Source: an uncultured Planctomycetales bacterium
GTDB lineage: Bacteria; Omnitrophota; Gorgyraeia; Gygaellales; Profunditerraquicolaceae
Assembly: GCA_964399915.1 (NCBI GenBank)
Contig: CAYNRN010000003.1
Span: 2,064-66,063 of the forward strand
Direction of reading: 5' to 3'
Length of the DNA: 64,000 nt
Under the pieces are notes generated by a model that saw only the letters and a list, made by a program, of their open reading frames with translations, was not told the DNA's origin and made no database searches. Positions 33,204-57,602 of this stretch are shown here, piece by piece (the first letter of the stretch is position 1; every line of letters starts with the position of its first letter). A program made the position numbers and the translations under genes.

Positions 33204-34397
33204 ATGCCGGTGCTTAAAATACTCCCCAATATTTATTCTGTGGGCGCAATAGACTGGGATGTGCGTAATTTTCACGGCCATACTTATACTACAAAAAGAG
33301 GCACTACCTATAATTCTTATCTTATAGTAGATGAGAAGATCGCCTTGGTAGATACGGTTTACGGGCCTTTCGCCGATGAACTGATTGAGAATATAAAGAG
33401 TATCGTCCTCCCGGAAAAAATAGATTTTGTGATTGCTAATCATGTGGAGACGGATCATTCAGGGGCGCTGCCTGCGATTATGAAGCTTTGCCCCAAAGCT
33501 AAAGTAATCGGGACTCAGAAATGCAAGGAAGGTTTATATAAGCATTATTACGGCAATTGGGATTTTCAGGTGGTAAAGACAGGCGATAAGATTAAACTCG
33601 GCTCGCGCAGCCTTACCTTTATGGAGGCGCCGATGATCCACTGGCCGGACAGTATGTTTACCTATTGTCCCGAAGAACAGCTGCTGCTTCCCAATGATGC
33701 TTTCGGGCAGCATTATGCCACAAGCGGGCGGTTTGACGACGAGGTAGACCAATGCGCGCTTATGGATGAGGCAAAAAAATATTACGCCAATATACTCTGG
33801 CCGTTAAGTTCCCTGATCCAGAGGAAGATTGAGGAAGTGCAGAAGTTAAATCTAGCGATCAAAATTATTGCCCCGAGCCACGGGGTGATCTGGCGCAAGG
33901 ACCCGATGAAGATTGTCAAGGCGTATCTGGCATGGGCTAAAAACGAAACTGTCCCTAAGGCGGTGATTGTTTATGAGACGATGTGGGGGGCAACCGAAAA
34001 GATGGCCCGCAGGATCACTGACGGCATAGTTGATTCCGGTGCCGAGGCTAAGGTTTATAATATCGCAACAAGCGACAGGACAGAAGTATTAAATGATATG
34101 CTTGACGCAAAAGGATTTTTGTTCGGCTCTTCTACTCACGATAATGATATGCTGCCTTCGATAGCAGCGTTTATGGAGCTTTTTAAAGGGTTAAAGCCGA
34201 AAAACCGCATTGCCGCTGTTTTCGGCTCGCATGGCTGGGCCGGCGGGGCAGTGAAAGAAATAGAGGCGGTAGCCAGGGAAGCGGGAGCCGAGGTTATCCA
34301 GCCCGGGCTTGCGCTGCAATACGTTCCGGATGCCCGGGAACTGGAAAACTGTTATGAATTCGGGAAGAGTTTTGCGCAAAGAATAAAAGGAGGATAA
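33204..34397 (+). CDS. Flavodiiron protein (rubredoxin:oxygen/NO oxidoreductase, FprA/ROO family)
   Basis: Metallo-beta-lactamase-like diiron domain (HVETDHSGALP) fused to a flavodoxin domain (AVIVYETMWGATEKMA). 397 aa. Confidence 0.8.
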   Translation: MPVLKILPNIYSVGAIDWDVRNFHGHTYTTKRGTTYNSYLIVDEKIALVDTVYGPFADELIENIKSIVLPEKIDFVIANHVETDHSGALPAIMKLCPKAKVIGTQKCKEGLYKHYYGNWDFQVVKTGDKIKLGSRSLTFMEAPMIHWPDSMFTYCPEEQLLLPNDAFGQHYATSGRFDDEVDQCALMDEAKKYYANILWPLSSLIQRKIEEVQKLNLAIKIIAPSHGVIWRKDPMKIVKAYLAWAKNETVPKAVIVYETMWGATEKMARRITDGIVDSGAEAKVYNIATSDRTEVLNDMLDAKGFLFGSSTHDNDMLPSIAAFMELFKGLKPKNRIAAVFGSHGWAGGAVKEIEAVAREAGAEVIQPGLALQYVPDARELENCYEFGKSFAQRIKGG

Positions 34398-34398
34398 G

Positions 34399-34839
34399 AT
34401 GAATACTTTTATCTGCGGTAAATGCGGGTACTTGGCTTTTGATCAGGCGCCGGATATCTGTCCGGTTTGCGGCGCTAAGAAAGAGGCCTTTGAAGCCGAT
34501 CCCTCTGCGATTAAAAAACCGGCCGATCCTAAAAGCCTTAATGATCTGGAGAAAAAGCATATCCCGGCTATAACGTTAGTCAGGAAATGCGGGCTGGTAC
34601 CTCAAGGCTGTATAGACGTACATATTAAGGTAGGGGAAATCCTGCACGTAATGGAAGCCAAACACTTTATTATGTACATAGATGTCTATCTGGATAAAAA
34701 TTTTATTGCCCGCTACCATATGACACCCGATAAATTAAACCCGGTTTTAAGCCTGCATCTTAAGGCCGACAAGGGAGAGTTGCTGGCGCTGGAAAATTGT
34801 AACCTCCACGGCAGGTGGGTTGCCGGGGCAACAATCTGA
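34399..34839 (+). CDS. Superoxide reductase (desulfoferrodoxin/neelaredoxin family) with N-terminal rubredoxin-like zinc ribbon
   Basis: N-terminal CGKCG...CPVCG. SOR-domain ligand pattern EKKHIPAI...H....H...C..H (CNLHGRW). Confidence 0.7.
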   Translation: MNTFICGKCGYLAFDQAPDICPVCGAKKEAFEADPSAIKKPADPKSLNDLEKKHIPAITLVRKCGLVPQGCIDVHIKVGEILHVMEAKHFIMYIDVYLDKNFIARYHMTPDKLNPVLSLHLKADKGELLALENCNLHGRWVAGATI

Positions 34840-35309
34840 TGGTTGCTTTAAGTGGCAGTATAATTAATTTTTTTCAGGATCAGGGGTGCGTTCTGGTCAA
34901 TAGTATCGATGAAAACGGCACGCCGCACAGCGCCTGTAAGGGGATAGTCGAGATAACGAAAAACGGGCGCGTTTTTCTATTCGACCTTTACCGGCAAAAG
35001 ACCCATAATAACCTACTGCTCAATCCTAAAATAAGTATCACCGCTTTCAACGAGCATAAGTTTATCGGTTATTGCCTTAAAGGCAGGGCCTCTGCTGTTA
35101 CCGCCGGAGAGATTAACGCCGACCTGATCAAGGCTTGGGAGGAACGGATTACCAGCAGGCTTACGCAGAGGTTATTAAAGAATATTCACGAAGAAAAGGG
35201 CCATCCGTATCATCCGGAAGCGCTCTTGCCTAAGCCGCAATATCTTATTGCAATGGATGTCGAAGAGATAGTGGATTTGACGCCGCAGCATATTAAAGAC
35301 AGGGGGTAG
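34839..35309 (+). CDS. Pyridoxamine 5'-phosphate oxidase-like FMN-binding split-barrel protein (tentative)
   Basis: Start chosen at ATG 34839 (overlapping the SOR stop as TGATG) instead of 34815. About 156 aa with an FMN-binding split-barrel-like pattern. Confidence 0.35.
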   Translation: MVALSGSIINFFQDQGCVLVNSIDENGTPHSACKGIVEITKNGRVFLFDLYRQKTHNNLLLNPKISITAFNEHKFIGYCLKGRASAVTAGEINADLIKAWEERITSRLTQRLLKNIHEEKGHPYHPEALLPKPQYLIAMDVEEIVDLTPQHIKDRG

Positions 35310-35312
35310 AAG

Positions 35313-35789
35313 ATGGGGAATATCTTTGCAGCCAGCGAGATCGTAGAGATAGGGATTCAGATCGAAAGAAACGGCAAAGATTTTTACGAAACTCTCAGCC
35401 GTAATAGCAAGGATCTCAAAGTGCAGGATACCTTCAATTTCCTTTCCGGCGAAGAAGCGAAACATATCGCTGCTTTCCAGAAGATACTCGGTTCGATAGG
35501 AAAATATGAGCCGCAGGGGCTGGATTCGGATGATTACTACGCCTATATGAATGCCTTATCTGCTGACAGCGTGTTTACCCAGAAAGATAAGGGAAGAGAA
35601 CTGGCAGCTAAGGTTAAAAACAATACCCAGGCGATTGATATGGGTATTCAGGCGGAGAAGGATTCAATTGTCTTTTATGAAGGGATAAAAAAGGCAGTAC
35701 CGGATTATGACCACAAGGCTGTAGATGAGATAATCCGTCAGGAGCAGGAACATTTAGGCATGTTATTGGGTTTAAAGAGAAAAATCTAA
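35313..35789 (+). CDS. Rubrerythrin-family ferritin-like diiron protein (no rubredoxin domain)
   Basis: Paired ExxH motifs (EEAKH; EQEH) plus E residues (IQIERNG, QAEKDS) of a four-helix-bundle diiron site. Confidence 0.6.
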   Translation: MGNIFAASEIVEIGIQIERNGKDFYETLSRNSKDLKVQDTFNFLSGEEAKHIAAFQKILGSIGKYEPQGLDSDDYYAYMNALSADSVFTQKDKGRELAAKVKNNTQAIDMGIQAEKDSIVFYEGIKKAVPDYDHKAVDEIIRQEQEHLGMLLGLKRKI

Positions 35790-35802
35790 GAGGAGGCTCT
35801 TA

Positions 35803-36039
35803 ATGGCTAAGTCGGTAAAAGTATACTCTACGCCAACTTGCCCCTGGTGCATTAAAGTTAAGCAGTTCCTTTCCGAAAATAATATCGCTTTTGAGAACTT
35901 TGATGTATCAAGCGATCAGGATAAAGCCCAGGAGATGATTAATAAAACCGGGCAGATGGGCGTGCCGGTTATCGACGTTGAAGGCGAGATCATCGTCGGG
36001 TTTGATAAAGATAAGATAAAACGAACCTTAGGAATATGA
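35803..36039 (+). CDS. Glutaredoxin-like protein (NrdH/YruB family)
   Basis: CPWC active site (VYSTPTCPWCIKVKQFL). GVPVI cis-Pro motif. 78 aa. Confidence 0.8.
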   Translation: MAKSVKVYSTPTCPWCIKVKQFLSENNIAFENFDVSSDQDKAQEMINKTGQMGVPVIDVEGEIIVGFDKDKIKRTLGI

Positions 36040-36953
36040 CCTACGATTTAGTCGTCATCGGCGCCGGGCCCGCTGGTATTACCGCAGCGATTTATGCAGC
36101 CAGAAAACGTTTAAATACCCTGGTGATTACCAAGGATATCGGGGGACAGGCGGCGTGGAGCGGGGATATCGAGAATTACATCGGATACCAATTTATCACT
36201 GGTCCTGACCTGGTAGAAAAGTTTGAAGAGCACCTGCGTAAATATGATATCGTTTTAAAAGAAAACGAAGCTGTTCAGACAGTAGAGAAACAAGGGAATA
36301 AAATTAAAGTCAAGACAGACAAGGCTGAATATGATTCCCGTACCGTGATTATTGCCTGCGGAAAGCGCTCTCGCGAATTGAATGTCCCGGGAGAAAAAGA
36401 ATTTAAGAATAAAGGCCTTACTTACTGCGCCACCTGTGACGGCCCGTTATTCAGCGGCAAAGATGTAGCGGTTATCGGAGGAGGTAATTCCGCCCTGGAT
36501 GCGGCACTGCAGTTAGCCAATATCGCTAGAAAAGTATATATTATCAATAATACCGTGCAGTTGGTAGGCGATGAAATAATGCTTGAGAAATTAACCGGTA
36601 ATACCAAAGTCGCGGTATTTAATGATGCCCGGGTTTTGGAGGTCTTTGGGGATAAATTTGTTAGCGGCCTGAAGATAAAACAGCAGGGTAGGGAGCAGGA
36701 ATTAACTGTTCAGGGCGTCTTTGTTGAAATCGGGCTCCTGCCTAACTCAAGGATCGTTCCGCAGGCGGCTAAGAACGTTTCTGCGGAAATTAAGGTTAAC
36801 TTTGCCAACGAAACCAGTATCCCGGCAGTATTCGCCGCCGGAGACGTAACCGATGTGCCGGAGAAACAAATCATTATTGCCGCCGGAGAAGGTGCTAAGG
36901 CCGCATTAAGCGCGTTCCGATATCTTGCCAGAAACAGGTTCAACCAGGAGTAA
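36036..36953 (+). CDS. trxB: Thioredoxin-disulfide reductase
   Basis: FAD motif VVIGAGPAG, redox-active CATCDG, NADPH motif GGGNSA. 305 aa. Confidence 0.8.
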   Translation: MTYDLVVIGAGPAGITAAIYAARKRLNTLVITKDIGGQAAWSGDIENYIGYQFITGPDLVEKFEEHLRKYDIVLKENEAVQTVEKQGNKIKVKTDKAEYDSRTVIIACGKRSRELNVPGEKEFKNKGLTYCATCDGPLFSGKDVAVIGGGNSALDAALQLANIARKVYIINNTVQLVGDEIMLEKLTGNTKVAVFNDARVLEVFGDKFVSGLKIKQQGREQELTVQGVFVEIGLLPNSRIVPQAAKNVSAEIKVNFANETSIPAVFAAGDVTDVPEKQIIIAAGEGAKAALSAFRYLARNRFNQE

Positions 36954-38907: not shown

Positions 38908-40386
38908 ATGTGGACAAAAGAAAGCCTGCAGGCATTGATTAAAGAGAAGCTGGAAGATTACCTCTTTGTGGTTGTTTCTAACCGGCAGCCTTATGTGCAT
39001 ACTTTTAAAAGAGGCAGGGTTGAATACCGGAGAGGCGCCGGCGGAGTAGTTACTGCCCTTGACCCGGTAATGCAGGCCTGCCACGGGCTTTGGGTAGCGT
39101 TCGGCAGCGGAGACGCTGACAGGAAGGTAAGCGACGCGCAGGGTAAGTTAGGAGTTCCCCCTGAAAGCCCCAACTATACCCTCAGGAGAGTATGGCTTAC
39201 TAAGGAGGAAGAAAACGGTTATTATTTCGGGTATTCCAACGAGGCACTCTGGCCGCTTTGCCATATGGCATTTCAGCGCCCGGTGTTCCGCAAAGAAGAC
39301 TGGGAATATTATGTCAAGGTAAATAAAAAATTCGCCCAGGCAGTAGCCGAAGAGGTAAATCATAAGAAGGCATTTATCTGGATACAGGATTACCATCTTT
39401 GCCTACTGGGAAAATTTTTAAAAGAGCTCCTGCCGGGCAAGATCATTGTTTCGCACTTCTGGCATATTCCCTGGCCGAATTATGAAACTTTCCGCATCTG
39501 TCCGCAAAAGAAAGAGATACTCGAGGGGCTCCTGGCGAATGATTTGATGGGTTTTCATATCCGCAACCACTGCGCTAATTTTATCGAGGCAATAGACAGA
39601 GAGATAGAAAGCAAGATAGACCGCGAACGTTTTTCCGTTATCCGCGGCGGGCACGAAACCATTGTCCGGCCGTATCCGATCAGCGTAGATTTTGAAGGGA
39701 TCAGCAGTTTTTCTGCTGCCGGAGAAGCGGATAAAATAGGGCAGGCGCTGATTGAAGAATTCAGCCTCAGCGGTCTAAAAGTTATGCTGGGCTTAGACCG
39801 CATAGATTATACAAAAGGTATTCCGGAGAGGTTACTGGCGATAGACGCGCTTTTTGAGGCGCACCCGGAGTTGAAAGAAAAGATTGTTTTTCTGCAGATG
39901 GGGGAGATCAGCCGTATCCATATACCTAAATATAAGGAATTGAACGATGAAATTAACGCTCTGGTCGAACAGATAAACTGGAAACACTCTACCGGTGAGT
40001 GGAGGCCGGTAATTTTAGTAAGGAGGCACCTTTCATTCAAGGAACTGGCGGGTTTCTACCGGATGGGGGAGGTATGTATTGTCAGCTCTTTACATGACGG
40101 CATGAACTTGGTAGCTAAAGAGTTTATTTCCTCGCGTTCGGATGAGAATGGCATGCTGGTCTTAAGTCAATTTACCGGCGCTGCGCGCGAATTGACCGAC
40201 GCGATACTGGTTAATCCCTTTGACCGCCATCAGTTCAGTGAAGGCATCTACCAGGCATTGAATCTGCCTTCGGAAGAAAAGCAGAAGAGGATGAATAAGA
40301 TGCGCGCCATAATCCAGCAGAATAATATCTTCCGTTGGGCAGGCAAGGTGCTTTCAGAACTTTTAAAGTTTGAGTTTAAGGAATGA
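38908..40386 (+). CDS. otsA: Alpha,alpha-trehalose-phosphate synthase (GT20)
   Basis: GT20 family motifs (LWVAFGSGD, IWIQDYHL, HFWHIPWP, SLHDGMNLVAKEF). 492 aa. Confidence 0.85.
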   Translation: MWTKESLQALIKEKLEDYLFVVVSNRQPYVHTFKRGRVEYRRGAGGVVTALDPVMQACHGLWVAFGSGDADRKVSDAQGKLGVPPESPNYTLRRVWLTKEEENGYYFGYSNEALWPLCHMAFQRPVFRKEDWEYYVKVNKKFAQAVAEEVNHKKAFIWIQDYHLCLLGKFLKELLPGKIIVSHFWHIPWPNYETFRICPQKKEILEGLLANDLMGFHIRNHCANFIEAIDREIESKIDRERFSVIRGGHETIVRPYPISVDFEGISSFSAAGEADKIGQALIEEFSLSGLKVMLGLDRIDYTKGIPERLLAIDALFEAHPELKEKIVFLQMGEISRIHIPKYKELNDEINALVEQINWKHSTGEWRPVILVRRHLSFKELAGFYRMGEVCIVSSLHDGMNLVAKEFISSRSDENGMLVLSQFTGAARELTDAILVNPFDRHQFSEGIYQALNLPSEEKQKRMNKMRAIIQQNNIFRWAGKVLSELLKFEFKE

Positions 40387-41186
40387 AGTATCTCTTACGC
40401 TATTGGCGCGTTTTGCCCGGGAAGGCCCGCGCTAAATATAAAGTTTTATTTTTAGATTTTGACGGTACTCTGGCGAAGATTGTAAAAAGCCCCCGTAAGG
40501 CCAGGATTGAGCCGTCAATTAAACTTTTATTGCTCCGAATAACGCAGGATAAGGCATACAGGGTTGCAGTTATCAGCGGTAGGGCGCTTGGCGACATCAA
40601 GAAGAGGGTCGGGATTAAAGGCATTGTTTATATCGGGAATCACGGTTTGGAAATTGACGGCTCCAAGATCAGGTTCTCTGGCTTTCAAATTGATAAATTC
40701 AGGTTAACGCTCAAACGGCTGAAGGCAAAACTGAAACAGAGGTTAGATCCGATAAAAGGGATTTTTATAGAAGATAAAGGATTAAGCTTGAGTGTACATT
40801 ACCGCTTGGTTAAAAAAAAGGACTTGGCCTTTTTTAAAGCCGCTTTTGCACAGATAACTGCTGAATATGCCTCCGGCAATAAAATAAAAATCCATCCGGG
40901 GAAGAAAGTTTTTGAGATCCGCCCTCCTCTGCAATGGGATAAAGGCAAAGTTGCGCTCTGGCTTTTAGCCAGATGGAAGTCCGCTTTTGCGGATAAGGAG
41001 GTATTGACGGTTTACATCGGAGATGATCTCACCGATGAAGATGCTTTCCGGGCTCTCGCGGGTAAGGCTATAACGGCGGTAGTGGGTAAAAGGAAAGATT
41101 CGGCAGCCGCTTACTATTTAAATAACGTAGGGGAAGTAGCAAGATTCTTAAACGTTCTGGGGCCGGCAAAATGCCTAAAATTATAA
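40383..41186 (+). CDS. otsB: Trehalose-6-phosphate phosphatase (HAD-IIB)
   Basis: HAD motif I FLDFDGTLA, motif IV GDDLTDEDAF. Start overlaps the otsA stop (ATGA). Confidence 0.8.
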   Translation: MKYLLRYWRVLPGKARAKYKVLFLDFDGTLAKIVKSPRKARIEPSIKLLLLRITQDKAYRVAVISGRALGDIKKRVGIKGIVYIGNHGLEIDGSKIRFSGFQIDKFRLTLKRLKAKLKQRLDPIKGIFIEDKGLSLSVHYRLVKKKDLAFFKAAFAQITAEYASGNKIKIHPGKKVFEIRPPLQWDKGKVALWLLARWKSAFADKEVLTVYIGDDLTDEDAFRALAGKAITAVVGKRKDSAAAYYLNNVGEVARFLNVLGPAKCLKL

Positions 41187-41842
41187 AAGCTAAAGAGCCG
41201 TTTAGGTTTTACACGCGTTTGCATTTATCAGAACTGACCGGATTAAAGGCGGTTAATCTCTCTCAACTTCTGGGAATCTTAAAAGAAGTTCCCGGTTCAA
41301 GCATATACCATCATACGCACAGGTTCCTACAGCAGCACCAATATCTTTCTCCCGAGCCTCCGAATGATTTTGCCTACTGGGTTTCCAGCGTCCTTGCCGA
41401 AGATGCCCTTGCCGAAGAACTGGCCAGTATCGATACCATCCAGTATTCTAATATCCGCAGCCTCAGGGAGAAGATAATCCAGACTATAGAAGATTACCTT
41501 AAAGAACACCCTATGGCAAAGTTGAAATTCGCCAACGAAGAGGAAGCTTTTTATTTTATCAAATCAATCAGTTTCGTTGTGCCGACAAAATACGTGGCGC
41601 ATGATTTAAAAGAGTTCATCAGCATCCTGGAAAGAGTGACCGTAGATTCGATATATTTCCATATCTTTGAGGCCCGCCTGAGGCTTGAGAAGCAGACTAA
41701 TGACTTCTCTTTATGGATCGAGACCTCTTTAGGCGATAAGCCGCTGGCGGATAGAATCGCCAATATTGACCCATATACGCGCACGCTTGAAGACTTACGC
41801 AGAACCTTAATCCGCATAATCGAAAGGAAGGTTTCATCATAA
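41171..41842 (+). CDS. Hypothetical protein conserved in the trehalose locus (223 aa, soluble)
   Basis: No recognisable catalytic motif. Overlaps both the otsB end and the treT start, implying co-translation with them. Confidence 0.4.
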   Translation: MPKIIKAKEPFRFYTRLHLSELTGLKAVNLSQLLGILKEVPGSSIYHHTHRFLQQHQYLSPEPPNDFAYWVSSVLAEDALAEELASIDTIQYSNIRSLREKIIQTIEDYLKEHPMAKLKFANEEEAFYFIKSISFVVPTKYVAHDLKEFISILERVTVDSIYFHIFEARLRLEKQTNDFSLWIETSLGDKPLADRIANIDPYTRTLEDLRRTLIRIIERKVSS

Positions 41843-41845
41843 AGC

Positions 41846-43057
41846 ATGGCACGCATCGACGAATATATCCCAATTGTCGGAGAATCAATTATCGATGACC
41901 TTCGGCTGATCGCCGAAAAGCTTAAAGGTAAAGTCATCCAGCATATAAATTCTACACCGGTAGGCGGAGGGGTCGCCGAGATTCTCAATTGCATGGTCCC
42001 GCTCCTAAAGGAGCTTGGCGTTGATACCCGATGGGATGTGATTAAGGGGGGTGAACAGTTTTTTAGTACGACTAAGAAATTCCATAACGCCCTGCACGGA
42101 AGGCGCGAAAACATTACTGACAGGGATTTTGAGGTTTTTCTTGAAACGAGCAACCACAATATTGAAGAAGTAAATACTTACGGGGATATTGTCTTTGTGC
42201 ACGACCCCCAACCGATTGCGCTGATAAGGAAGAAGGCCGAAAACAAATGGATCTGGCGTTGTCATATCGACGTATCAAATCCTGACAGTAAAGTCTGGAG
42301 TTTTCTCCGCGATTTCGTGGTTAAATACGATTCAGCGGTATTTTCAGCGCCCGGATTTTCACAGCCGCTGCCGATCAGGCAATTCCTGATTTCGCCTTCC
42401 GTCGACCCTTTAAGCGATAAAAATAAGGAATTGCCTCAAGCTGATGTTGAAGCAGTGATGAAGAAGCACGGGATACGTAAAAATAAGCCGGTAATCACTC
42501 AGATCTCGCGTTTTGACCGGCTAAAGGATCCGCTGGGGGTAATCCAGACATATAAACTGGTAAAAAAATATACCGATTGCCAACTGGTGCTTGCCGGAGG
42601 CACTGCTTCTGATGACCCGGAAGGGGCGCAGGTCCTGGAAGAGGTAAGGGAGGCAGCTAAAGGGGATTCCGATATCCATATTTTACTCTTACCGCAGAAC
42701 GACCTGGAGATAAACGCACTGCAAAGGGGCTCTACGGTTATCATGCAGAAATCCCTGAGAGAGGGGTTTGGCCTTACGGTTTCAGAGGCGCTCTGGAAGG
42801 CAAAACCTGTGGTTGCTTCCCATGTCGGAGGCATCCCGCTTCAGATAAAGCATAAATATTCCGGGCTTCTCTGCCATTCTATAGAAGGCGCCGCCTTTGC
42901 CCTCAAACAACTTTTAAACAGCCCGGAATACGCAAAGAAGCTGGGCGCAAACGGGAAGGAGCATATCCGCAATAACTTTTTGATCACCCGGCACCTGAGG
43001 GATTATATACTTTTATTTCTCTCGCTTTTTCATCCCGAAGACATCGTTAACCTTTAA
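41846..43057 (+). CDS. treT: Trehalose glycosyltransferring synthase TreT-like GT4 glycosyltransferase
   Basis: The N-terminus (IPIVGESIIDDLRLIAEKLKGKVIQHINSTPVGGGVAEILNCMVPLLKELGVDTRWDVIKGG..FF..TKKFHNALHG) closely mirrors archaeal TreT. GT4 C-terminal EGFGLTVSEAL. Confidence 0.65.
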   Translation: MARIDEYIPIVGESIIDDLRLIAEKLKGKVIQHINSTPVGGGVAEILNCMVPLLKELGVDTRWDVIKGGEQFFSTTKKFHNALHGRRENITDRDFEVFLETSNHNIEEVNTYGDIVFVHDPQPIALIRKKAENKWIWRCHIDVSNPDSKVWSFLRDFVVKYDSAVFSAPGFSQPLPIRQFLISPSVDPLSDKNKELPQADVEAVMKKHGIRKNKPVITQISRFDRLKDPLGVIQTYKLVKKYTDCQLVLAGGTASDDPEGAQVLEEVREAAKGDSDIHILLLPQNDLEINALQRGSTVIMQKSLREGFGLTVSEALWKAKPVVASHVGGIPLQIKHKYSGLLCHSIEGAAFALKQLLNSPEYAKKLGANGKEHIRNNFLITRHLRDYILLFLSLFHPEDIVNL

Positions 43058-43077: not shown

Positions 43078-43105
43078 CTTGACAAATACGCTAAATTGTG
43101 TATAC
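43078..43105 (+). promoter_or_regulatory. Promoter TTGACA-16-TATACT upstream of the second Rrf2 regulator; it shares its -35 context (AAAAAcTCTTGACAAAT) with the first Rrf2 promoter
   Basis: cTTGACAAATacgctaaattgtgTATACT. Confidence 0.5.
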
Positions 43106-43136
43106 TCTACTAAGATAATAGAGATTATAGGATAAT

Positions 43137-43577
43137 ATGAGGATAACCTATAAAGGGGATTACGCCTTAAAAGTTATTTTGAATTTAAGCCTGCATTACG
43201 GCGGCGGCCTGGTGACGATTCATGATTTAGCCAGGCGACTGGACATACCGGTCAAGTTCCTTGAGCAGATACTGCTGGATTTAAAAAGAGGCGGTTTCCT
43301 CCAGAGCAGGCGCGGTAAAATCGGAGGTTATTCTTTGGCTAAAGCCCCGGCTAAAATAAAGCTGGGGGAGGTAATCAGGTTTATTGACGGGCCGGTCAGC
43401 CCGGTTGCCTGTGTAGATAAGAGTTATAAGGGGTGCAGTGATATCACCACCTGCGTATTCAGGGAAATCTGGCAGCGCATCGCCGCTTCAACTGCCGCGA
43501 TAATCGATAATATCACTTTTGAAGACCTGACGAAGAAGATCAAAAGGGCGGGCAAGGCACTGGTTTATCAAATTTAA
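43137..43577 (+). CDS. Rrf2 family transcriptional regulator, CymR-like (cysteine-metabolism repressor type)
   Basis: Rrf2 wHTH ([23 protein letters not shown]...[42 protein letters not shown]). Directly precedes cysK, as in the Firmicutes cymR-cysK arrangement. Confidence 0.7.
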
Positions 43578-43581: not shown

Positions 43582-44505
43582 ATGCGCATAGCTAAAAATA
43601 TTACAGAATTAATCGGCAATACTCCTTTGGTGAGGTTAAACAGGGCCACTGAAGGCTGTGTTGCAGAGGTGGTCGCGAAATTAGAGTCCTTTAATCCCTG
43701 CTCTTCGGTGAAGGACCGTATCGGCCTGAGTATGATTGAGGCAGCGGAAAAGGAAGGCAGGATTAAAAAAGGCGCTGTGATCATAGAGCCCACCTCCGGT
43801 AATACCGGCATTGCCTTGGCTTTTGTCTGCGCGGTGAAAGGCTATAAACTGATCCTGACTATGCCCGAGACGATGAGTACGGAGCGCAGGCAGCTTTTGA
43901 CCGCTTTTGGCGCGGAGATTATCTTAACGCCCGGGGCGGAGGGGATGTCCGGGGCAGTCAGGAGAGCGGAAGAACTGGCAAAAAAAGAAAAGAACTATTT
44001 TATATTACAGCAATTCAGGAATCCGGCTAACCCAGAAATCCACCGGAAAACCACAGCCGTTGAAATCTGGCAGGATACCGGAGGAAAAGTTGATATTCTG
44101 GTAGCGGGAATCGGCACAGGAGGCACAATCACCGGCGTATCAGAAGTAATCAAGAGGAAAAAACCTTCACTTAAGGTAATCGCCGTAGAGCCGAAAGATT
44201 CTCCGGTGCTTTCCGGAGGCAAGCCCGGCCCCCATAAGATCCAGGGTATAGGCGCGGGGTTTGTTCCTGAAATCCTGAATAGCAAAATAATCGATGAAAT
44301 TATTCAGGTCTCTAATGAAGAAGCGATAGAGGCATCCAGGCAGCTTGCCAAGAAAGAGGGGATTTTGGCGGGTATTTCTTCCGGGGCGGCTGTCTTTGCG
44401 GCGCTTGAAGCCGCCCGCAGGAAAGAAAACAGAGATAAACTGATAGTAGTCATTCTTCCGGATACCGGAGAGCGCTATCTCAGCACTGAATTATTCAAAG
44501 AATAG
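43582..44505 (+). CDS. cysK: Cysteine synthase A (O-acetylserine sulfhydrylase)
   Basis: PLP-lysine motif [25 protein letters not shown]. Confidence 0.9.
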
Positions 44506-44517: not shown

Positions 44518-44745
44518 ATGGCCATAAAAGATAAGGTTGAGCAAGCGTTGAACAAAGTGCGCCCGATGCTGGCAGCCGACGGCGGCAACGTAGAGTTAGT
44601 AGATGTCAGCGCAGACGGAGTCGTAAAATTAAAGCTTACCGGAAGCTGCGGCTGTTGCCCGATGTCGCAGATGACGCTGAAGATGGGGGTAGAAAAGATA
44701 ATCAAAAAAGACGTGCCGGAGGTAAAAGAAGTAATCGCTATCTGA
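44518..44745 (+). CDS. NifU-like Fe-S cluster carrier domain protein (Nfu)
   Basis: 75 aa with GSCGCCPMS (CxxC cluster-binding) and the NifU C-terminal-domain pattern. Confidence 0.75.
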   Translation: MAIKDKVEQALNKVRPMLAADGGNVELVDVSADGVVKLKLTGSCGCCPMSQMTLKMGVEKIIKKDVPEVKEVIAI

Positions 44746-44798: not shown

Positions 44799-46001
44799 AT
44801 GAAAACAATTAAAGAAATCAATGATAAGATAAAGAAGGGCCAGGCGGTAGTGGTTACGGCCGAAGAGATTATAGATCTGGTTGATAAGAAGGGGCCAAAG
44901 AAGGCCGCTGAAGAAGTCGACGTAGTCACTACCGGCACCTTCGGCCCGATGTGTTCTTCCGGGGCATATTTTAATATCGGGCATTCGAAACCCAGGATAA
45001 AGTTAGGAGGAGGAAGCTGTAAGCTTAATGATGTTCCGGCTTACTGCGGATTCGCCGCGGTAGACATTTATCTGGGAGCGACTGCCGTGCCGGATGACGA
45101 CCCTTTGAACAAGGTATTCCCCGGTGAATTTAAATATGGCGGCGCCCATGTGATAAATGAGATTGTCGCAGGGCGCGATGTGCGCCTTCAGGCAACGGCA
45201 TACGGGACAGATTGTTATCCCAGGAAGAAACTGGAAACCATGGTCAATATCAGGGATTTAAACGAAGCAGTATTATTTAATATCCGCAACTGCTATCAGA
45301 ACTATAATGTGGCGGTAAATCTCTCGGATAAGATAATCTATACCTATATGGGGGTATTGAAGCCTAACCTGGGTAACGCCAACTATTGCTCAGCAGGGCA
45401 GCTTTCCCCGCTTTTGAAAGACCCTCACTATAAAACAATCGGCATCGGGACAAAGATATTTCTAGGCGGGGGTATCGGATATGTAGCATGGCAGGGGACT
45501 CAGCATAACCCAAGCGTAAAGAGGAAAGAAAACGGGATACCTCAGGCGCCTGCCGGCACACTTGCGGTAATCGGCGACTTGAAACAGATGAAACAGGAAT
45601 GGCTTACGGGAATCAGTATGCTTGGTTACGGAGTTACGCTAACCGTGGGCATAGGGGTCCCTATTCCGGTGCTTGATGAGGAGATAGTTAAATACGCGGC
45701 GGCAGGTGACGAACAGATATTCGCGCAGGTAGTGGATTACGGCAAGAGTTATCCGGAGTGCGTACCGGGGTCGTTGGCAGAAGTCAATTATGCCCAGCTG
45801 AAAACCGGCAAGATTACCGTTCAGGGTAAAAGTATCCCTACAGGCAACTTATCCAGCTATTCCAAGGCGCGCGAGATCGCCGAGGAGCTGAAGTCATGGA
45901 TTAAGAAAGGCGATTTCCTGCTTAGCGAGCCGGTAGCAAGATTGCCCGGCGCAGAATCCGGGTATACCTTTAAGATGCTCAACGAAAGGCCGATAGTATA
46001 A
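44799..46001 (+). CDS. DUF39/COG1900 homocysteine-biosynthesis protein (MA1821-type L-aspartate-semialdehyde sulfurtransferase family)
   Basis: 400 aa with a characteristic N-terminus (KTIKEINDKIKKGQAVVVTAEEIIDLV...VDVVTTGTFGPMCSSGAYFN). Immediately followed by an NIL-ferredoxin partner. Confidence 0.6.
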   Translation: MKTIKEINDKIKKGQAVVVTAEEIIDLVDKKGPKKAAEEVDVVTTGTFGPMCSSGAYFNIGHSKPRIKLGGGSCKLNDVPAYCGFAAVDIYLGATAVPDDDPLNKVFPGEFKYGGAHVINEIVAGRDVRLQATAYGTDCYPRKKLETMVNIRDLNEAVLFNIRNCYQNYNVAVNLSDKIIYTYMGVLKPNLGNANYCSAGQLSPLLKDPHYKTIGIGTKIFLGGGIGYVAWQGTQHNPSVKRKENGIPQAPAGTLAVIGDLKQMKQEWLTGISMLGYGVTLTVGIGVPIPVLDEEIVKYAAAGDEQIFAQVVDYGKSYPECVPGSLAEVNYAQLKTGKITVQGKSIPTGNLSSYSKAREIAEELKSWIKKGDFLLSEPVARLPGAESGYTFKMLNERPIV

Positions 46002-46028
46002 CCTATTGCGGTATTTAAGAGGTGAGAA

Positions 46029-46436
46029 ATGACCCGTAAAAGAATTGTTTTGCATTTCCCCCACAGATTGGTTGATCAGCCGATTATCTATAAGTTGGTC
46101 AAAGAGCATGACCTGCAGTTTAATATCCTCAAGGCCTATGTTACGCCGCAGGAGGAAGGGCTGATGGTCCTGGAACTATCCGGCAAAAAAGAGAATTTTG
46201 AAAAGGGGATACAATATCTGGAATCCTGCGGGGTAAAGATTCAGCCTCTGAGCCAGGATGTGATCCGCAATGAAACCAAATGCACCGATTGCGGCGTATG
46301 CGTGCCGATCTGTCCGACGGCAGCCCTGGCCATCGATCCGATAACCCGCAAAGTGCACTTCTACGATAATAAATGTATCGCCTGCGAGCTCTGCGTAAAG
46401 GTTTGCCCTGCCCGCGCCATGGAAGTACGCTTCTAA
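46029..46436 (+). CDS. NIL domain + 2x[4Fe-4S] ferredoxin protein (MA1822-type partner)
   Basis: N-terminal NIL-like domain (IVLHFPHRLVDQPIIYKLVKEHDLQFNILKAYVTPQEEGLMVLEL). C-terminal CTDCGVCVPICP and CIACELCVKVCP. Confidence 0.65.
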   Translation: MTRKRIVLHFPHRLVDQPIIYKLVKEHDLQFNILKAYVTPQEEGLMVLELSGKKENFEKGIQYLESCGVKIQPLSQDVIRNETKCTDCGVCVPICPTAALAIDPITRKVHFYDNKCIACELCVKVCPARAMEVRF

Positions 46437-47273
46437 ATGAATAAACTGAAAAAATTAAGGTCGATAATCAGAAACGCGGGTTCTCTGCTGATTGCTTTTT
46501 CCGGCGGCGTTGACAGCACATTCCTGCTTAAGGTTGCCTCCGAAGTTTTGCCTCGAGACAAGCTACTTGCTGTTACAGCCGATTCCGCTACTTATCCGGC
46601 CGAAGAATTATTATCCGCTAAATGCAGCGTAAAAAGATTAGGCGTAAGGCATAAAATTGTAAAGACAAAAGAGCTCAAGGATAGTAGATTTTCGGCAAAT
46701 CCGGTAAATCGCTGTTATTTCTGTAAAAGCGAACTTTTTCTCAGGCTAAAAAAGCTCGCTAAAGAAGAAAAATTAAATTTTGTAGCCGATGCCAGTAATA
46801 CCTCGGATAAATTTGATTTTCGTCCGGGCGCTAGAGCGAAAACTGAGCTGAAGATACGCTCTCCGCTGGCTGAGGCAGGGTTGGCCAAGAGAGATATCCG
46901 CATGCTTAGTAAAAAGATAGGGTTAGATACCTGGGATAAGCCGGCATTGGCCTGCCTGGCCTCAAGGGTTCACTACGGAATCAAAATAGACCAGCGGCTT
47001 TTAAACAAGATAAATCAGGCAGAGAATTTAATACGCAGGGACGGTTTCAGGCAGGTGAGGGTTAGGCATTATAATAACGGGCTTTGCCGGATAGAGGTGC
47101 CTAAGAAAGAGGTCGGCCTGTTGATTAAGAGGGGTAATTTGCTGGTAGAAAAGCTCAAAAAATTAGGATATAATTATGTAACCGTAGATTTAGAAGGTTA
47201 TCGCACGGGAAGCATGAATCCAACCCTTCCTAAGGCAAGGGCCGGGTTCATTAAGAGAGGAAGGACTGGGTGA
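46437..47273 (+). CDS. LarE-like PP-loop ATPase (COG1606 ATP-dependent sulfur transferase family)
   Basis: PP-loop AFSGGVDSTFLLKVA, CYFCK, and an ACLASR conserved-Cys region like the LarE Cys176 context. Confidence 0.6.
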   Translation: MNKLKKLRSIIRNAGSLLIAFSGGVDSTFLLKVASEVLPRDKLLAVTADSATYPAEELLSAKCSVKRLGVRHKIVKTKELKDSRFSANPVNRCYFCKSELFLRLKKLAKEEKLNFVADASNTSDKFDFRPGARAKTELKIRSPLAEAGLAKRDIRMLSKKIGLDTWDKPALACLASRVHYGIKIDQRLLNKINQAENLIRRDGFRQVRVRHYNNGLCRIEVPKKEVGLLIKRGNLLVEKLKKLGYNYVTVDLEGYRTGSMNPTLPKARAGFIKRGRTG

Positions 47274-48436
47274 AAAGAGTATATTTAGATTATTCGGCTA
47301 CTGCGCCGACTGACCCGCGGGTAATTAAGGCGATGCAGCCTTACTTTTTTGAGGCCTTCGGCAACCCCGCCAGTATCCATTCTTTCGGACAGGAGGCAAA
47401 GAAGGCGATAGAAGATGCGCGGGAGAAGACGGCCGGATTCCTCGGCGCTAATCCCGCTGAGATAATCTTTACTTCCGGAGGCACCGAATCGGATAATTTT
47501 GCGCTTTTTGGGGTAGCCCGCGCCATGAAAGGCAAAGGCAACCATATTATTACCAGCGCAATCGAACACCATGCTGTCAGCGAACCCTGTAAATTCCTGC
47601 AGAAAGAGGGTTTTCAGATTACCGCTGTTAAACCGGATACCAGCGGTATAGTTTCTCCGGATGATGTCAAAAAAGCGATTACCGCAAAAACTATCCTCAT
47701 CTCGGTGATGCATGCTAATAATGAAATCGGCACAATCCAACCGATAGCAGAAATAGGAAAAATTGCCAGGGGCAAAGGCATCTATTTTCACAGCGATGCC
47801 GTGCAGAGCGTAGGGCATATTCCCGTAAACGTTGACGAGTTAAACGTCGACCTGCTGTCGCTTTCCGCCCATAAATTTTACGGCCCTAAGGGCGTAGGCG
47901 CATTATATATAAGGAAAGGCACGCGCATAGAGGCTTTTTTACACGGCGGAGACCAGGAAAAAGGCAGAAGGGCCTCGACGCAGAATACGCCCGGTATCGC
48001 CGGCCTGGCAGAAGCCCTGGTTATCTGTTCGAAAGAGATGGAGCAAGAAGCGCGTTTCCAGTCCGGCCTGCGCGATAAATTAATCAAAGAAATACCAAAA
48101 AGGATTAGCGAAGTTATTCTAAACGGGCATCCCGTAAAGCGCCTTCCTAACAACGTCAACTTCTCGATGAGATATATTGAGGGCGAGTCGATTCTGCTTA
48201 ATCTTGATCTGCTCGGTATCGCCGCTTCTACGGGGTCCGCCTGTACTTCTACCAGCCTTGAGCCTTCACACGTCTTGCTGGCGATAGGGCTTACTGCCGA
48301 TGTAGCTCATGGTTCCCTGAGGATCACCATGGGCAGATGGACCAAAGAAAGCGATATTGATTATCTCCTGGAACAGCTGCCGCCGGTTGTGCAGAAACTG
48401 CGTTCAATGTCGCCTCTCTACGAAAAGAAACAATAA
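47270..48436 (+). CDS. nifS: Cysteine desulfurase (NifS/IscS class)
   Basis: PLP-lysine SAHKFYGPKGVGALYIRKG. Active-site loop STGSACTS. 388 aa. Confidence 0.85.
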   Translation: MKRVYLDYSATAPTDPRVIKAMQPYFFEAFGNPASIHSFGQEAKKAIEDAREKTAGFLGANPAEIIFTSGGTESDNFALFGVARAMKGKGNHIITSAIEHHAVSEPCKFLQKEGFQITAVKPDTSGIVSPDDVKKAITAKTILISVMHANNEIGTIQPIAEIGKIARGKGIYFHSDAVQSVGHIPVNVDELNVDLLSLSAHKFYGPKGVGALYIRKGTRIEAFLHGGDQEKGRRASTQNTPGIAGLAEALVICSKEMEQEARFQSGLRDKLIKEIPKRISEVILNGHPVKRLPNNVNFSMRYIEGESILLNLDLLGIAASTGSACTSTSLEPSHVLLAIGLTADVAHGSLRITMGRWTKESDIDYLLEQLPPVVQKLRSMSPLYEKKQ

Positions 48437-48438: not shown

Positions 48439-49395
48439 ATGCAGGAAAAGATCATTGATTTCCTAAAATCCAAACAGGGCTATGCCTCAGGCGAAGAGAT
48501 CAGCCAGCGCTTGAGAATCAGCAGGCAGGCGCTTTGGAAGCATATACAACACCTTAAAGACTCAGGTTACGGCATCGAAGCAGTCCCGCATCTGGGATAT
48601 CAGCTTTGCGGCCTTCCTGACAGGTTATTCCCCTTGGAGATTTCAAGTTCTCTTCAGACAAAGATTATCGGTAAAAAGATTTATTACTTTGACCTGGTGC
48701 ATTCTACTATGGATAGCGCGGCAGAATTGGCCCGGAAAAATTGCCCCGAGGGCACGCTGGTGGTGGCGGAATCCCAATCTAAAGGCAGGGGGAGGCTGGG
48801 CAGAGAATGGTCTTCCCCAAAATATAAAGGCATATATATATCTTTGATCCTGCGCCCTAAAATCTTGCCTTCTCAGGCCCCGGTATTCACTCTCCTATCG
48901 GCAGTAAGCGCCTGCGAAGCGCTGAAGGAAGCCTGCGCTTTAAGCGCGCAGATAAAGTGGCCTAATGATTTAATGGTAAACAATAAAAAGATCGGCGGAA
49001 TTCTCACTGAACTTAATGCCGAAACCGACGAAGTGCATTCTCTGATTATCGGCATCGGCATTAATGTGAATAACGATAGAAAATCTCTGCTTAACCAGGC
49101 TACCTCCGTAAAAGAGGAGAAGGGCCAGGCAGCCAGCAGGATAGGCCTGCTGCAGGAATTGCTGCGTAAACTGGAAGTTAATTATCTAACGCTGCAGGAA
49201 GAGGGCACGCAGCCGATTATTGAGAAATGGCGCCTGCTCAATATTACTTTAGGCAGAAGGATAAAGATATCCTCCCACAACCGGCTGATAGAAGGAGAGG
49301 CTTCGGACATAGATGCCGACGGGGCGTTATTATTAAGAAAGGATTCCGGGTTAACCCAGAGAATAACTTCCGGCGATGTAATGCATTGCCGATAA
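48439..49395 (+). CDS. birA: Bifunctional biotin--[acetyl-CoA-carboxylase] ligase / biotin operon repressor BirA
   Basis: N-terminal HTH (YASGEEISQRLRISRQALWKHIQHLKDSGYGIE), BPL catalytic domain (GRGRLGREWSSP) and C-terminal SH3-like domain. Confidence 0.8.
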   Translation: MQEKIIDFLKSKQGYASGEEISQRLRISRQALWKHIQHLKDSGYGIEAVPHLGYQLCGLPDRLFPLEISSSLQTKIIGKKIYYFDLVHSTMDSAAELARKNCPEGTLVVAESQSKGRGRLGREWSSPKYKGIYISLILRPKILPSQAPVFTLLSAVSACEALKEACALSAQIKWPNDLMVNNKKIGGILTELNAETDEVHSLIIGIGINVNNDRKSLLNQATSVKEEKGQAASRIGLLQELLRKLEVNYLTLQEEGTQPIIEKWRLLNITLGRRIKISSHNRLIEGEASDIDADGALLLRKDSGLTQRITSGDVMHCR

Positions 49396-49419: not shown

Positions 49420-49448
49420 TTGACGATTGAACCGCACCGGATTATAAT
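49420..49448 (+). promoter_or_regulatory. Near-consensus sigma70 promoter TTGACG-17-TATAAT for the TonB-dependent receptor
   Basis: Hexamers at 49420-49425 and 49443-49448. Embedded in the loop of a terminator-like hairpin (AACCGCAC 49430-49437 / GTGCGGTT 49472-49479 + T7). Confidence 0.55.
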
Positions 49449-56555: not shown

Positions 56556-57602
56556 ATGCTCAAAACTTATTATTGCGAATCCGCCCAACTCAAGACTTTC
56601 TATAACCTCTTAATAAAGAGTTTCCGCGTATTTTCGCCCGCCCCCAAAGAGTCCGTAAAAGGAGAAAAAGATTATTATTACCGCTTGGCCTCAGGCGAAG
56701 AGGAGCTTGTCTTTAACCCCTACAGGGTAGTTGAGCCGCTGAAATCGTTTTTTACCGCCCCCTTAGAAAAAGTAACGGATTATTTTACCCCCCAGGAAGA
56801 TGCCTCCCGGATAAATGAGAGAACAATCATCTTCGGGGTAAAGAGCTGCGATCTCCACGGCCATAAAATCCAGGATTATGTTTTTCTTGAAGGCGTGGAG
56901 GTAGATTCTTTATACGCCTTACGCAGGGAAAACACAATCCTCATCTCTTCCGATTGCACAGATTATAAGCAAGTCTGCCATTGCCTTGCCTGGTCGGTAA
57001 TGCCTTATCCCACGGAGGGATTTGATCTAAACCTAAGCCCCCTCAACGACGGATTCCTGGTTGATCTGGGTAGCTCCAAAGGGGAAGAGCTAATTGAGAA
57101 ATATAAAGAATTCTTTATGCTTGCTAAAGACAGCCAGATAGCCGCGCGCAAGGTCAAGCGACAGAATCTGGTAGAATGCCTCAAGAGGCACCTTTTGCCT
57201 CAAGGCCTGGTGGCGCAGGATAAAGCCCAGGAGGTCGTACGTTCGGGCTTTAGTTCCGAGACATGGAAAAAGTTTATGCTTACCTGCGTTGAGTGCGGAG
57301 GGTGTAACCTGATTTGCGACACCTGCCATTGTTTTCTGCTTGGCGACGCAAAGGCAGGCAATATAAACAAGAAGCTCAGGGTTTGGGATTCGTGTCTTTA
57401 CGCTAATTATGCCCGGGTTGCAGGAGGCGCAAACCCATTAAAAACCAGGGCGCAGCGTTTAAGGAACCGCTTTATCAAGAAGTTTGATTTTTTCGTGGAT
57501 AATATGGGTATTCCTGCCTGTTGCGGATGCGGCAGGTGTATCGAAGTCTGCCCGGGCAAGATCGATATCAGGGAAGTTTTGAAGGATTTAGCCAAGAAAT
57601 GA
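56556..57602 (+). CDS. Fe-S subunit resembling anaerobic sulfite reductase AsrA / sulfhydrogenase beta (HydB)
   Basis: Cys clusters CVECGGCNLICDTCHCF and CCGCGRCIEVCP. 348 aa, matching AsrA/HydB size. Confidence 0.6.
   Translation: MLKTYYCESAQLKTFYNLLIKSFRVFSPAPKESVKGEKDYYYRLASGEEELVFNPYRVVEPLKSFFTAPLEKVTDYFTPQEDASRINERTIIFGVKSCDLHGHKIQDYVFLEGVEVDSLYALRRENTILISSDCTDYKQVCHCLAWSVMPYPTEGFDLNLSPLNDGFLVDLGSSKGEELIEKYKEFFMLAKDSQIAARKVKRQNLVECLKRHLLPQGLVAQDKAQEVVRSGFSSETWKKFMLTCVECGGCNLICDTCHCFLLGDAKAGNINKKLRVWDSCLYANYARVAGGANPLKTRAQRLRNRFIKKFDFFVDNMGIPACCGCGRCIEVCPGKIDIREVLKDLAKK

Follow-up and report, generated by a model that had tools for sequence, protein, structure and literature searches.

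In Methanosarcina acetivorans, L-ASST (L-aspartate semialdehyde sulfurtransferase) is encoded by two adjacent, co-oriented genes, MA1821 and MA1822, and the genetics of this archaeon, as cited in PMC12068725, show a requirement for homocysteine synthesis. MA1821 consists of a DUF39 domain with two conserved cysteines, the essential Cys54 and the auxiliary Cys131 (PMC12068725), followed by a C-terminal pair of CBS domains, and MA1822 carries a NIL domain and two [4Fe-4S] motifs. The enzyme is presumed to convert L-aspartate-4-semialdehyde, reduced sulfur and low-potential electrons directly to L-homocysteine, which bypasses the activation of homoserine. In the steps proposed in the literature, which is unsettled as to both the sulfur species and the number of electrons (PMC12068725), the aldehyde would be bound by the DUF39 subunit and sulfur passed on via the conserved cysteines, one of which has been reported to be persulfidated in vivo in Methanosarcina. 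The thio-intermediate would then become a thiol, with electrons delivered via the NIL-ferredoxin subunit's two [4Fe-4S] clusters, and the NIL domain probably binds methionine, providing feedback control.

Related systems have been described in bacteria. In 2014, genetic work on Desulfovibrio alaskensis showed that homocysteine synthesis depends on DUF39 (PMC4045070), and DUF39, a NIL/ferredoxin protein and COG2122 were all found to be needed in D. vulgaris in 2018 (PMC5764234); in Desulfovibrio, DUF39 and the NIL/ferredoxin protein are both genetically required for homocysteine and methionine (PMC4045070, PMC5764234). The Desulfovibrio systems (Dde_3007; DvMF_1464, DvMF_0262 and DvMF_0044; DVU2938) combine a CBS-less DUF39 with a NIL/ferredoxin protein, and the locus tags of the three D. 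vulgaris Miyazaki genes are far apart. DET0919-0921 of Dehalococcoides have been cited as the same pathway (PMC5764234), a locus also assigned in PMC4045070. A more distant member of the PF01837 superfamily, the coenzyme M synthase MMP16/ComF (COG1900d), carries out an analogous aldehyde-to-thiol chemistry, with a ferredoxin domain inserted in DUF39 and its conserved cysteines elsewhere.

The DUF39 protein and its NIL-ferredoxin partner

The locus described here lies in a 64-kb window, the whole stretch of DNA that was analysed, from a Candidatus Omnitrophota bacterium. An initial annotation had proposed an MA1821/MA1822-type gene pair, and the two open reading frames are indeed found on the + strand, co-oriented and 27 nt apart, adjacent as in M. 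acetivorans. The first (44799..46001, 400 residues) encodes a predicted DUF39/HcyBio (COG1900a) subunit of L-ASST. The initial annotation had made its reading depend on similarity to a COG1900 profile, and Pfam family PF01837 (HcyBio) spans the protein fully, from profile position 1 to 349 of 349 (E 5.1e-155; 516.1 bits against a gathering cut-off of 26.2). NCBI already labels Omnitrophota homologues of 86-88% identity "homocysteine biosynthesis protein", and close Omnitrophota homologues are also titled "L-aspartate semialdehyde sulfurtransferase" (names from NCBI and JGI).

Like MA1821, the window protein has a full DUF39 domain with both family cysteines. Cys52, in the motif GTFGPMCSSG, is invariant among 126 bacterial and archaeal COG1900a sequences, and Cys139, in AYGTDCYPR, is conserved in at least 90% of them. 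Both are kept in all sampled members of the bacterial clade and of the archaeal DUF39+CBS group; representatives of distant DUF39 subfamilies each lack at least one of the two, with the equivalent of Cys52 lost. A conserved cysteine had been expected in the C-terminus of the protein, but the family cysteines lie in the N-terminal half. For comparison with MA1821, we used as proxies archaeal DUF39+CBS proteins from Hadarchaeota, MSBL1 and "Methanobacteriota", obtained in a second protein search. In these archaeal proteins the two cysteines are 77 residues apart, equal to the distance from Cys54 to Cys131 in MA1821 (numbering from PMC12068725), which suggests that Cys52 and Cys139 are the equivalents of Cys54 and Cys131, respectively. 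Unlike the archaeal proteins, the window protein contains insertions of 2, 8 and 10 residues at about positions 70-71, 102-109 and 242-251. It is about 49% identical to the archaeal representatives and 74% identical to its Dehalococcoides mccartyi homologue; the link to characterized proteins runs through these proxies and through the Dehalococcoides protein, whose function is itself only predicted.

The window protein ends at residue 400 and has no CBS domain, so SAM sensing on the catalytic subunit is not expected. The CBS pair is a trait of archaeal MA1821/MJ0100 that divides archaeal from bacterial forms, and its absence does not exclude membership in L-ASST; the experimentally validated Dde_3007 also lacks it (PMC4045070). 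A phylogeny against the methanogen homologues had been suggested, and one was built with the archaeal proxies. In this neighbour-joining tree, which is distance-based and carries no support values, the window protein groups with Omnitrophota sequences within a bacterial clade; this clade has the archaeal DUF39+CBS clade as its sister, and the MMP16-like branch lies far away. Transfer between phyla is apparent as well. An AlphaFold model generated from 31 sequences had a pLDDT of 55.9 and was discarded, and one generated from the 126-sequence alignment reached 88.1. The DUF39 domain had no sequence match in the PDB, nor is its fold similar to that of any solved structure.

The second open reading frame (46029..46436, 135 residues) encodes, as does MA1822, a NIL domain (PF09383, E 3.5e-17) followed by a ferredoxin region with two Fer4 matches in Pfam. 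Cys85/88/91/95 and Cys116/119/122/126 form two complete CxxCxxCxxxC motifs, and the protein and its D. mccartyi counterpart share 62% identity. Its PDB matches are in the ferredoxin half (residues 64-134), apart from one marginal match outside it (36rp_D, E 0.0009), and an identifiable NIL-domain structure was not among them. From its two cluster motifs it is a candidate electron donor, and it is probably also a methionine sensor. We examined the loci of the 80 species genomes with the closest DUF39 relatives (the best 80 of at least 592, all bacterial), and a NIL-ferredoxin gene lies within 200 bp downstream of DUF39 in 57 of the 73 with enough downstream sequence, in more than ten phyla. The adjacency of the two genes is therefore not due to chance. 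With a full-length DUF39 domain, both COG1900a cysteines, a NIL-2x[4Fe-4S] protein directly downstream and this clade placement, the MA1821/MA1822-type identification stands.

From these features we infer that the gene pair is very probably an L-ASST, which would make L-homocysteine from aspartate semialdehyde, reduced sulfur and electrons, the reaction presumed for the M. acetivorans enzyme. This assignment is based on the domain identities, the cysteine and cluster motifs, the clade placement, the gene order and the conservation of the promoter and operator described below; catalysis and the path of the electrons are predicted. Genes for MetA/MetX and for MetY/MetB/MetC were not found within the 64-kb window.

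Operon organization

The pair is embedded in a tightly packed set of genes, all on the + strand, in the order Rrf2-cysK-nfu-DUF39-NILFd-larE(CXXC-C)-nifS-birA, with intergenic gaps of 4, 12, 53, 27, 0, -4 and 2 nt; larE thus directly abuts the NIL-ferredoxin gene and overlaps nifS by 4 nt. A sigma-70-type promoter (TTGACA-16 nt-TATACT, 43079..43106, + strand, 11/12 consensus positions) lies upstream of the Rrf2 gene and is probably the start of the operon. Five other Omnitrophota loci share its -35 and -10 elements without change, but the stretch upstream of the -35 element is unconserved. The totals from the promoter and terminator scan were not above those from shuffles; the matches used here are two intergenic ones of 11/12, one of them backed by conservation. 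A palindrome, CTCTACTA-AGA-TAATAGAG (43105..43123, + strand), overlaps both the -10 element and the start of transcription and is conserved in other loci (L005, L006, L007, L010 and L016). No other exact match to it occurs in the window, where 0.02 matches with up to three mismatches are expected by chance, and the palindrome may be an operator to which the Rrf2 regulator binds. The regulator (43137..43577; PF02082, E 2.9e-36; TIGR00738, 116.6 bits against a cut-off of 73.3) is IscR/CymR-like but falls below both equivalog cut-offs. In 33 of the 67 evaluable loci among the best 80 of at least 592 genomes, DUF39 has an Rrf2 gene upstream of it.

The initial annotation had named cysK and nifS as neighbours, and both scored above their cut-offs: cysK (O-acetylserine sulfhydrylase, cysteine synthase A; 43582..44505) has 492.9 bits against 350.95 for TIGR01139, and the cysteine desulfurase gene nifS (47270..48436) has 562.9 bits against 530.75 for TIGR03402. 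A cysK gene directly upstream of DUF39 is itself a common arrangement, present in several phyla and in 28 of the 67 loci that could be evaluated among the same best 80 genomes. Between cysK and DUF39 the window has a gene for a 75-residue Nfu-type protein (44518..44745; NifU C-terminal domain, PF01106, E 2.8e-28; Cys44/46/47), a probable Fe-S cluster carrier judged by its domain. Of these 80 genome loci, 18 have an Nfu-type gene no more than 6 kb from DUF39, and it lies between DUF39 and the NIL-ferredoxin gene in L017, L022, L029 and L071. At the other end, birA (biotin-protein ligase/repressor, 48439..49395; TIGR00121, 231 bits against 83.1) is probably co-transcribed, since the next strong promoter match (49420-49448, 11/12) comes only after it. 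Because all of these genes form one tightly packed operon with a conserved promoter and a palindromic operator, cysteine synthesis, homocysteine synthesis and the trafficking of sulfur and Fe-S clusters are probably co-regulated. An Rfam scan of the whole window returned no riboswitch or other RNA family, which leaves control by SAM or by a T-box unsupported.

The arrangement resembles that of the D. mccartyi DET0921-DET0919-type locus (L033), which has the order cysK-DUF39-NILFd. There, however, the NIL-ferredoxin gene is followed by a small aspartic-protease-like ORF and then by COG2122/UPF0280 (NF003323, 323 bits), whereas the window has the LarE-type insertase and NifS genes at this position, and Nfu between cysK and DUF39. 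The window pair also differs from the scattered genes of D. vulgaris Miyazaki in being adjacent within an operon.

Sulfur supply

COG2122 is needed in D. vulgaris, but in the 64-kb window no COG2122/UPF0280 gene was found by tblastn, and a 23-sequence profile gave a best E of about 1. The slot right after the NIL-ferredoxin gene is occupied by COG2122 in 23 of the 80 genome loci (best 80 of at least 592) and, among 40 metagenome loci, in 29. In the window it is occupied by a gene for a LarE-family PP-loop ATP-dependent sulfur insertase (46437..47273; TIGR00268, 315 bits against a cut-off of 150) with an SGGVDS motif and a CXXC-C triad, Cys93, Cys96 and Cys173. Aligned to 5udq and 6b2o, the third cysteine is one residue off Cys176 of L. 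plantarum LarE, the same shift that is seen in the CXXC-C of T. maritima LarE (Cys92/95/172, PMC9283937). The protein is of the [4Fe-4S]-dependent type, and its tie to L-ASST is only putative.

A refinement of the L-ASST assignment, which we consider doubtful, is a cysteine-persulfide relay in which the LarE-like enzyme, NifS or both feed DUF39 in the role that belongs to COG2122 in Desulfovibrio, Dehalococcoides and methanogens. CysK would make cysteine, NifS would take sulfur from it, and the [4Fe-4S] LarE-type insertase would pass this sulfur to Cys52/Cys139 of DUF39. That the sulfur of homocysteine comes in this way from cysteine, not from free sulfide via COG2122, with LarE-NifS as a functional replacement, is likewise unlikely. 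The idea is suggested by larE-nifS filling the COG2122 slot in the window and in its Omnitrophota relatives; also, COG2122 does not lie within 6 kb in any of the 15 genome loci that have a LarE-like gene, and a Planctomycetota locus (L074) has DUF39-NILFd-LarE as well. The LarE of T. maritima shares this CXXC-C motif and is supplied with sulfane sulfur by a cysteine desulfurase (PMC9283937), and LarA, LarB and LarC are absent from the ORFs of the 64-kb window. However, the mutual exclusivity of LarE and COG2122 largely tracks phylogeny (Omnitrophota vs. Dehalococcoidia), and the loci therefore do not count as independent. Synteny further downstream (birA, a TonB receptor, mnmA, nadA) is conserved too, and the position of larE may thus be plain synteny. 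COG2122 occurs in L094, L102 and L106 with no DUF39 within 10 kb; it can be encoded apart from DUF39 and so may sit elsewhere in this genome. In Syntrophia-type loci (L049, L050 and L052) the LarE-like gene follows mnmA, which points to a role in tRNA thiolation or in sulfur metabolism generally, and the carboxylate adenylation chemistry of LarE is mismatched with an aldehyde substrate. If true, such a relay would bear on the question of which sulfur species L-ASST uses.

Substrate, distribution and host

The L-ASST assignment itself could be challenged if DUF39 acted on another aldehyde, for example sulfoacetaldehyde in the making of coenzyme M, as in MMP16/ComF, or on the precursor of some other thiol cofactor. 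Members of COG1900 do perform analogous aldehyde-to-thiol conversions, and L-ASST may partly replace MMP16 in M. acetivorans (PMC12068725). Here such a role is highly improbable: a separate NIL-ferredoxin partner is a hallmark of L-ASST, the cysteine positions fit COG1900a and not COG1900d, the clade also holds the Dehalococcoides protein assigned to methionine synthesis, and the 64-kb window has no genes for coenzyme M biosynthesis or for methyl/alkyl-CoM reductase. Identity as a coenzyme M synthase (MMP16) was rejected, as the methanogenesis-marker-16 model (TIGR03287) gave 120.9 bits against a cut-off of 363.95, the ferredoxin insertion of the MMP16-like protein P0230 is absent, and the window protein branches far from the MMP16-like representative. 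A pseudogene or relic was also rejected, with both open reading frames intact and preceded by Shine-Dalgarno-like sequences and with many homologues more than 80% identical.

The initial annotation had regarded the occurrence of the system in an LPS-containing bacterium as noteworthy for the distribution of the pathway. The window does encode LptE, a lipid A acyltransferase, a BamD/YfiO-like protein and a TonB-dependent receptor, in agreement with such an envelope; desulfoferrodoxin, rubrerythrin, a flavodiiron protein and hydrogenase-like genes give it the context of an anaerobe. The occurrence, however, is ordinary, since many anaerobic bacteria are already known to have the pathway: it has been established in Desulfovibrio and predicted for Dehalococcoides, and a pattern scan found DUF39 relatives in at least 592 species genomes from more than ten bacterial phyla, the groups including Omnitrophota, Dehalococcoidia, Thermodesulfobacteriota, Spirochaetota, Elusimicrobia and Planctomycetota. 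The gene pair is an already-described system and adds nothing new on the distribution of the pathway.

The main use of the result is correct annotation. The sequence points to an ability of this Omnitrophota bacterium to produce homocysteine, and through it methionine, with no need for the homoserine-activation route. Omnitrophota are an uncultured phylum often discussed as host-dependent, and a homocysteine route of this kind therefore bears on predictions of auxotrophy for the phylum. The operon context, with its Rrf2 operator, Nfu, and a LarE-type insertase and NifS in the COG2122 slot, could guide experiments on how L-ASST is supplied with sulfur and on how cysteine and homocysteine synthesis are co-regulated, questions to which it is presumably relevant.

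The DUF39 and NIL-ferredoxin pair

Two adjacent open reading frames lie where the initial annotation had placed them: a DUF39 protein of 400 amino acids (44799–46001, + strand) and, 27 nt further on, a NIL-ferredoxin of 135 amino acids (46029–46436, + strand). The first matches the whole PF01837 profile (HcyBio, formerly DUF39; E 5.1e-155), so its similarity to COG1900 is clear. The second combines a NIL domain at its N-terminus (E 3.5e-17) with two Fer4 stretches, where two complete CxxCxxCxxxC motifs are made up of cysteines 85/88/91/95 and 116/119/122/126.

The COG1900a (L-ASST) type is defined by two nearly universal cysteines; in Methanosarcina acetivorans MA1821, Cys54 is essential, while Cys131 is dispensable yet contributes to activity (PMC12068725). 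The DUF39 protein of the window has Cys52 within GTFGPMCSSG and Cys139 within AYGTDCYPR, both in the N-terminal half and not in the C-terminus, where a conserved cysteine had been expected. Across 126 aligned bacterial and archaeal sequences Cys52 never varies and the conservation of Cys139 is at least 90%; one or both are lost in representatives of distant DUF39 subfamilies. Since archaeal DUF39+CBS proteins show a Cys-Cys spacing of 77 residues, identical to that from 54 to 131 in MA1821, mapping through these proxies is sound, and Cys52 and Cys139 would be the counterparts of Cys54 and Cys131. The full profile match, both cysteines and the closely following NIL-ferredoxin together allow the pair to be assigned with high confidence, by homology, to the MA1821/MA1822-type system, as originally proposed. 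A methanogenesis-marker-16 (MMP16/ComF) identity was rejected, with 120.9 bits against a cut-off of 363.95 and without the ferredoxin insertion of that subfamily.

Distribution and phylogeny

The occurrence of the pair in a bacterium had been singled out as noteworthy, but its novelty does not hold. In 2014 homocysteine synthesis in Desulfovibrio alaskensis was shown to depend on DUF39, and DET0921 and MJ0100 were listed as orthologues (PMC4045070). In 2018 D. vulgaris was shown to need DUF39, the NIL/ferredoxin protein and COG2122, and DET0921:DET0919 was given as an instance of the same pathway (PMC5764234). When one genome per species was scanned by pattern, DUF39 relatives were confirmed in at least 592 genomes. 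The window DUF39 protein is found identical in NCBI, JGI, ENA and Logan assemblies, and its closest named homologues (86–88% identical, Candidatus Omnitrophota) are called "homocysteine biosynthesis protein" at NCBI; JGI names an 84% identical homologue "L-aspartate semialdehyde sulfurtransferase". The pair is a known, already annotated system with close homologues already named in the phylum. Its counterparts in Dehalococcoides mccartyi are 74% (DUF39) and 62% (NIL-ferredoxin) identical. Among the best 80 loci from the at least 592 genomes, 57 of the 73 that could be evaluated show the order DUF39 then NIL-ferredoxin; of 67 evaluable ones, 28 have cysK as the gene immediately upstream of DUF39, and 33 have Rrf2 upstream.

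The DUF39 family is compact (1021 clusters at 50% identity, E ≤1e-3, in a scan of 1.84 billion representatives). A neighbour-joining tree without support values places the window protein in an Omnitrophota group, inside a tight bacterial clade (68–85% identity) that also holds Dehalococcoidia, Thermodesulfobacteriota, Spirochaetota, Elusimicrobia, Planctomycetota, Actinomycetota, Aerophobetes, Sumerlaeota and Saganbacteria. The sister group in this tree is an archaeal DUF39+CBS clade (Hadarchaeota, MSBL1 and "Methanobacteriota"; 47–50% identity). In an archaeal representative the CBS portion matches the MJ0100 CBS pair of known structure (3kpc, E 8.5e-33), linking the clade with the MJ0100/MA1821 architecture. 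The bacterial DUF39 proteins (loci L007–L086 of other species genomes) resemble one another to an unusual degree across phyla (68–85% identity), and the phyla are mixed together in the tree; lateral transfer and/or very strong constraint may lie behind this.

The operon and the gene after the pair

The operon runs Rrf2, cysK, nfu, DUF39, NIL-ferredoxin, larE-like, nifS and birA, with spacings of 4, 12, 53, 27, 0, -4 and 2 nt. The reported proximity of cysK (43582–44505) and nifS (47270–48436) is borne out, both scoring above their NCBIfam equivalog cut-offs. Directly upstream of DUF39 is the gene of a 75-aa Nfu-type protein (NifU C-terminal domain; 44518–44745); in loci L017, L022, L029 and L071, one a Chloroflexi genome, nfu is inserted between DUF39 and the NIL-ferredoxin gene, a hint that its product may help to mature the clusters of the ferredoxin. 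Sigma-70 promoter matches (11/12 each) lie upstream of Rrf2 (43079–43106) and after birA (49420–49448). The palindrome CTCTACTA-AGA-TAATAGAG (43105–43123), which occurs once in the window, adjoins the first promoter and overlaps its -10 element. Five other Omnitrophota loci share the -35, the -10 and the palindrome with the window, while the sequence further upstream is not conserved. The palindrome is likely an autoregulatory operator of the Rrf2 regulator heading the sulfur operon. An Rfam scan of the window found no family, and thus no SAM riboswitch.

COG2122 is the usual third gene of this operon, in bacterial and archaeal-type loci alike. It follows the NIL-ferredoxin gene in 23 of 80 genome loci (the best 80 of at least 592), including D. 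mccartyi, whose cluster runs on to UPF0280/COG2122 (8222–8974 of locus L033; NF003323, 323 bits), and in 29 of 40 metagenome loci, gathered with an Omnitrophota COG2122 query. Neither tblastn nor a profile search found COG2122 in the 64-kb window. The slot is held by a LarE-family PP-loop sulfur insertase (46437–47273) with SGGVDS and Cys93/96/173, followed by the translationally coupled nifS. These cysteines correspond to the CXXC-C signature of Thermotoga LarE, which is [4Fe-4S]-dependent and cysteine-desulfurase-fed (PMC9283937); larA, larB and larC are absent from the window. The arrangement recurs in Omnitrophota relatives and one Planctomycetota locus (L074), and none of the 15 genome loci bearing a LarE-like gene has COG2122 within 6 kb. 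One could read this recurrent succession of a LarE-like gene and nifS as a sulfur-delivery module replacing COG2122, but we consider that improbable: the pattern tracks phylogeny, COG2122 can lie apart from DUF39 (metagenome loci L094, L102 and L106 have no DUF39 within 10 kb), the LarE-like gene comes after mnmA in other lineages (Syntrophia-type loci L049, L050 and L052), and LarE chemistry targets carboxylates. These operon-level details are minor leads.

Genomic setting and predicted function

LptE, a lipid A acyltransferase, a BamD/YfiO-like lipoprotein and a TonB-dependent receptor are encoded in the window, indicating a diderm with LPS, in agreement with the initial annotation. Anaerobe markers are desulfoferrodoxin, rubrerythrin, a flavodiiron protein and a group-4 hydrogenase-like module. 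An oxygen-detoxification cluster (32486–36953) comprises an FAD/NAD oxidoreductase, the flavodiiron protein, desulfoferrodoxin with a rubredoxin-like N-terminus, a PNPOx-like protein, rubrerythrin and a thioredoxin-reductase-like flavoprotein; genome loci L005 and L006 have a comparable group of genes upstream of their sulfur operon. Directly upstream of the window operon is a trehalose-related block of overlapping or nearly abutting genes (38908–43057: OtsA-like GT20, OtsB-like phosphatase, DUF5752 protein, E 5e-71, and TreT-like glycosyltransferase). At 30822–32064, another regulator of the Rrf2 family (134 aa) precedes, by 4 nt, a 277-aa protein whose only assigned domain is a 2x[4Fe-4S] ferredoxin at the N-terminus. 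Another sulfur/thiamine-related block (24989–28421) encodes, in a row, a ThiI-like PP-loop protein with an NFACT-R_2 RNA-binding domain, a radical SAM protein, ThiM and ThiE; in L005 the Rrf2-cysK-DUF39 operon has a Thi4 gene immediately upstream. The membrane-bound group-4 [NiFe]-hydrogenase/complex-I-like module (56556–62069; NuoH-, NuoB-, NuoC- and NuoD/large-subunit-like proteins) is preceded by Fe-S and FAD/NAD oxidoreductase subunits. Nearly all long ORFs of the window (1–64000) are encoded by the + strand, and every 2-kb bin shows a positive GC skew, consistent with a location of the whole stretch on one replichore and with strong co-orientation.

The AlphaFold model of DUF39 is confident (pLDDT 88.1), but neither it nor a sequence search found a significant relative among solved structures, so structure gives no added mechanistic help. 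The sulfur species and electron count of L-ASST are still unsettled in the field, and methionine binding and a regulatory effect on activity have been reported for the NIL domain (PMC12068725). For the DUF39 cysteines a role as persulfide or sulfur-transfer sites has been proposed, and the ferredoxin subunit would supply electrons. By homology to genetically characterised systems (PMC5764234), the most likely function of the pair in this organism is the conversion of aspartate semialdehyde, with reduced sulfur and electrons, to homocysteine, in which homoserine would not be an intermediate.
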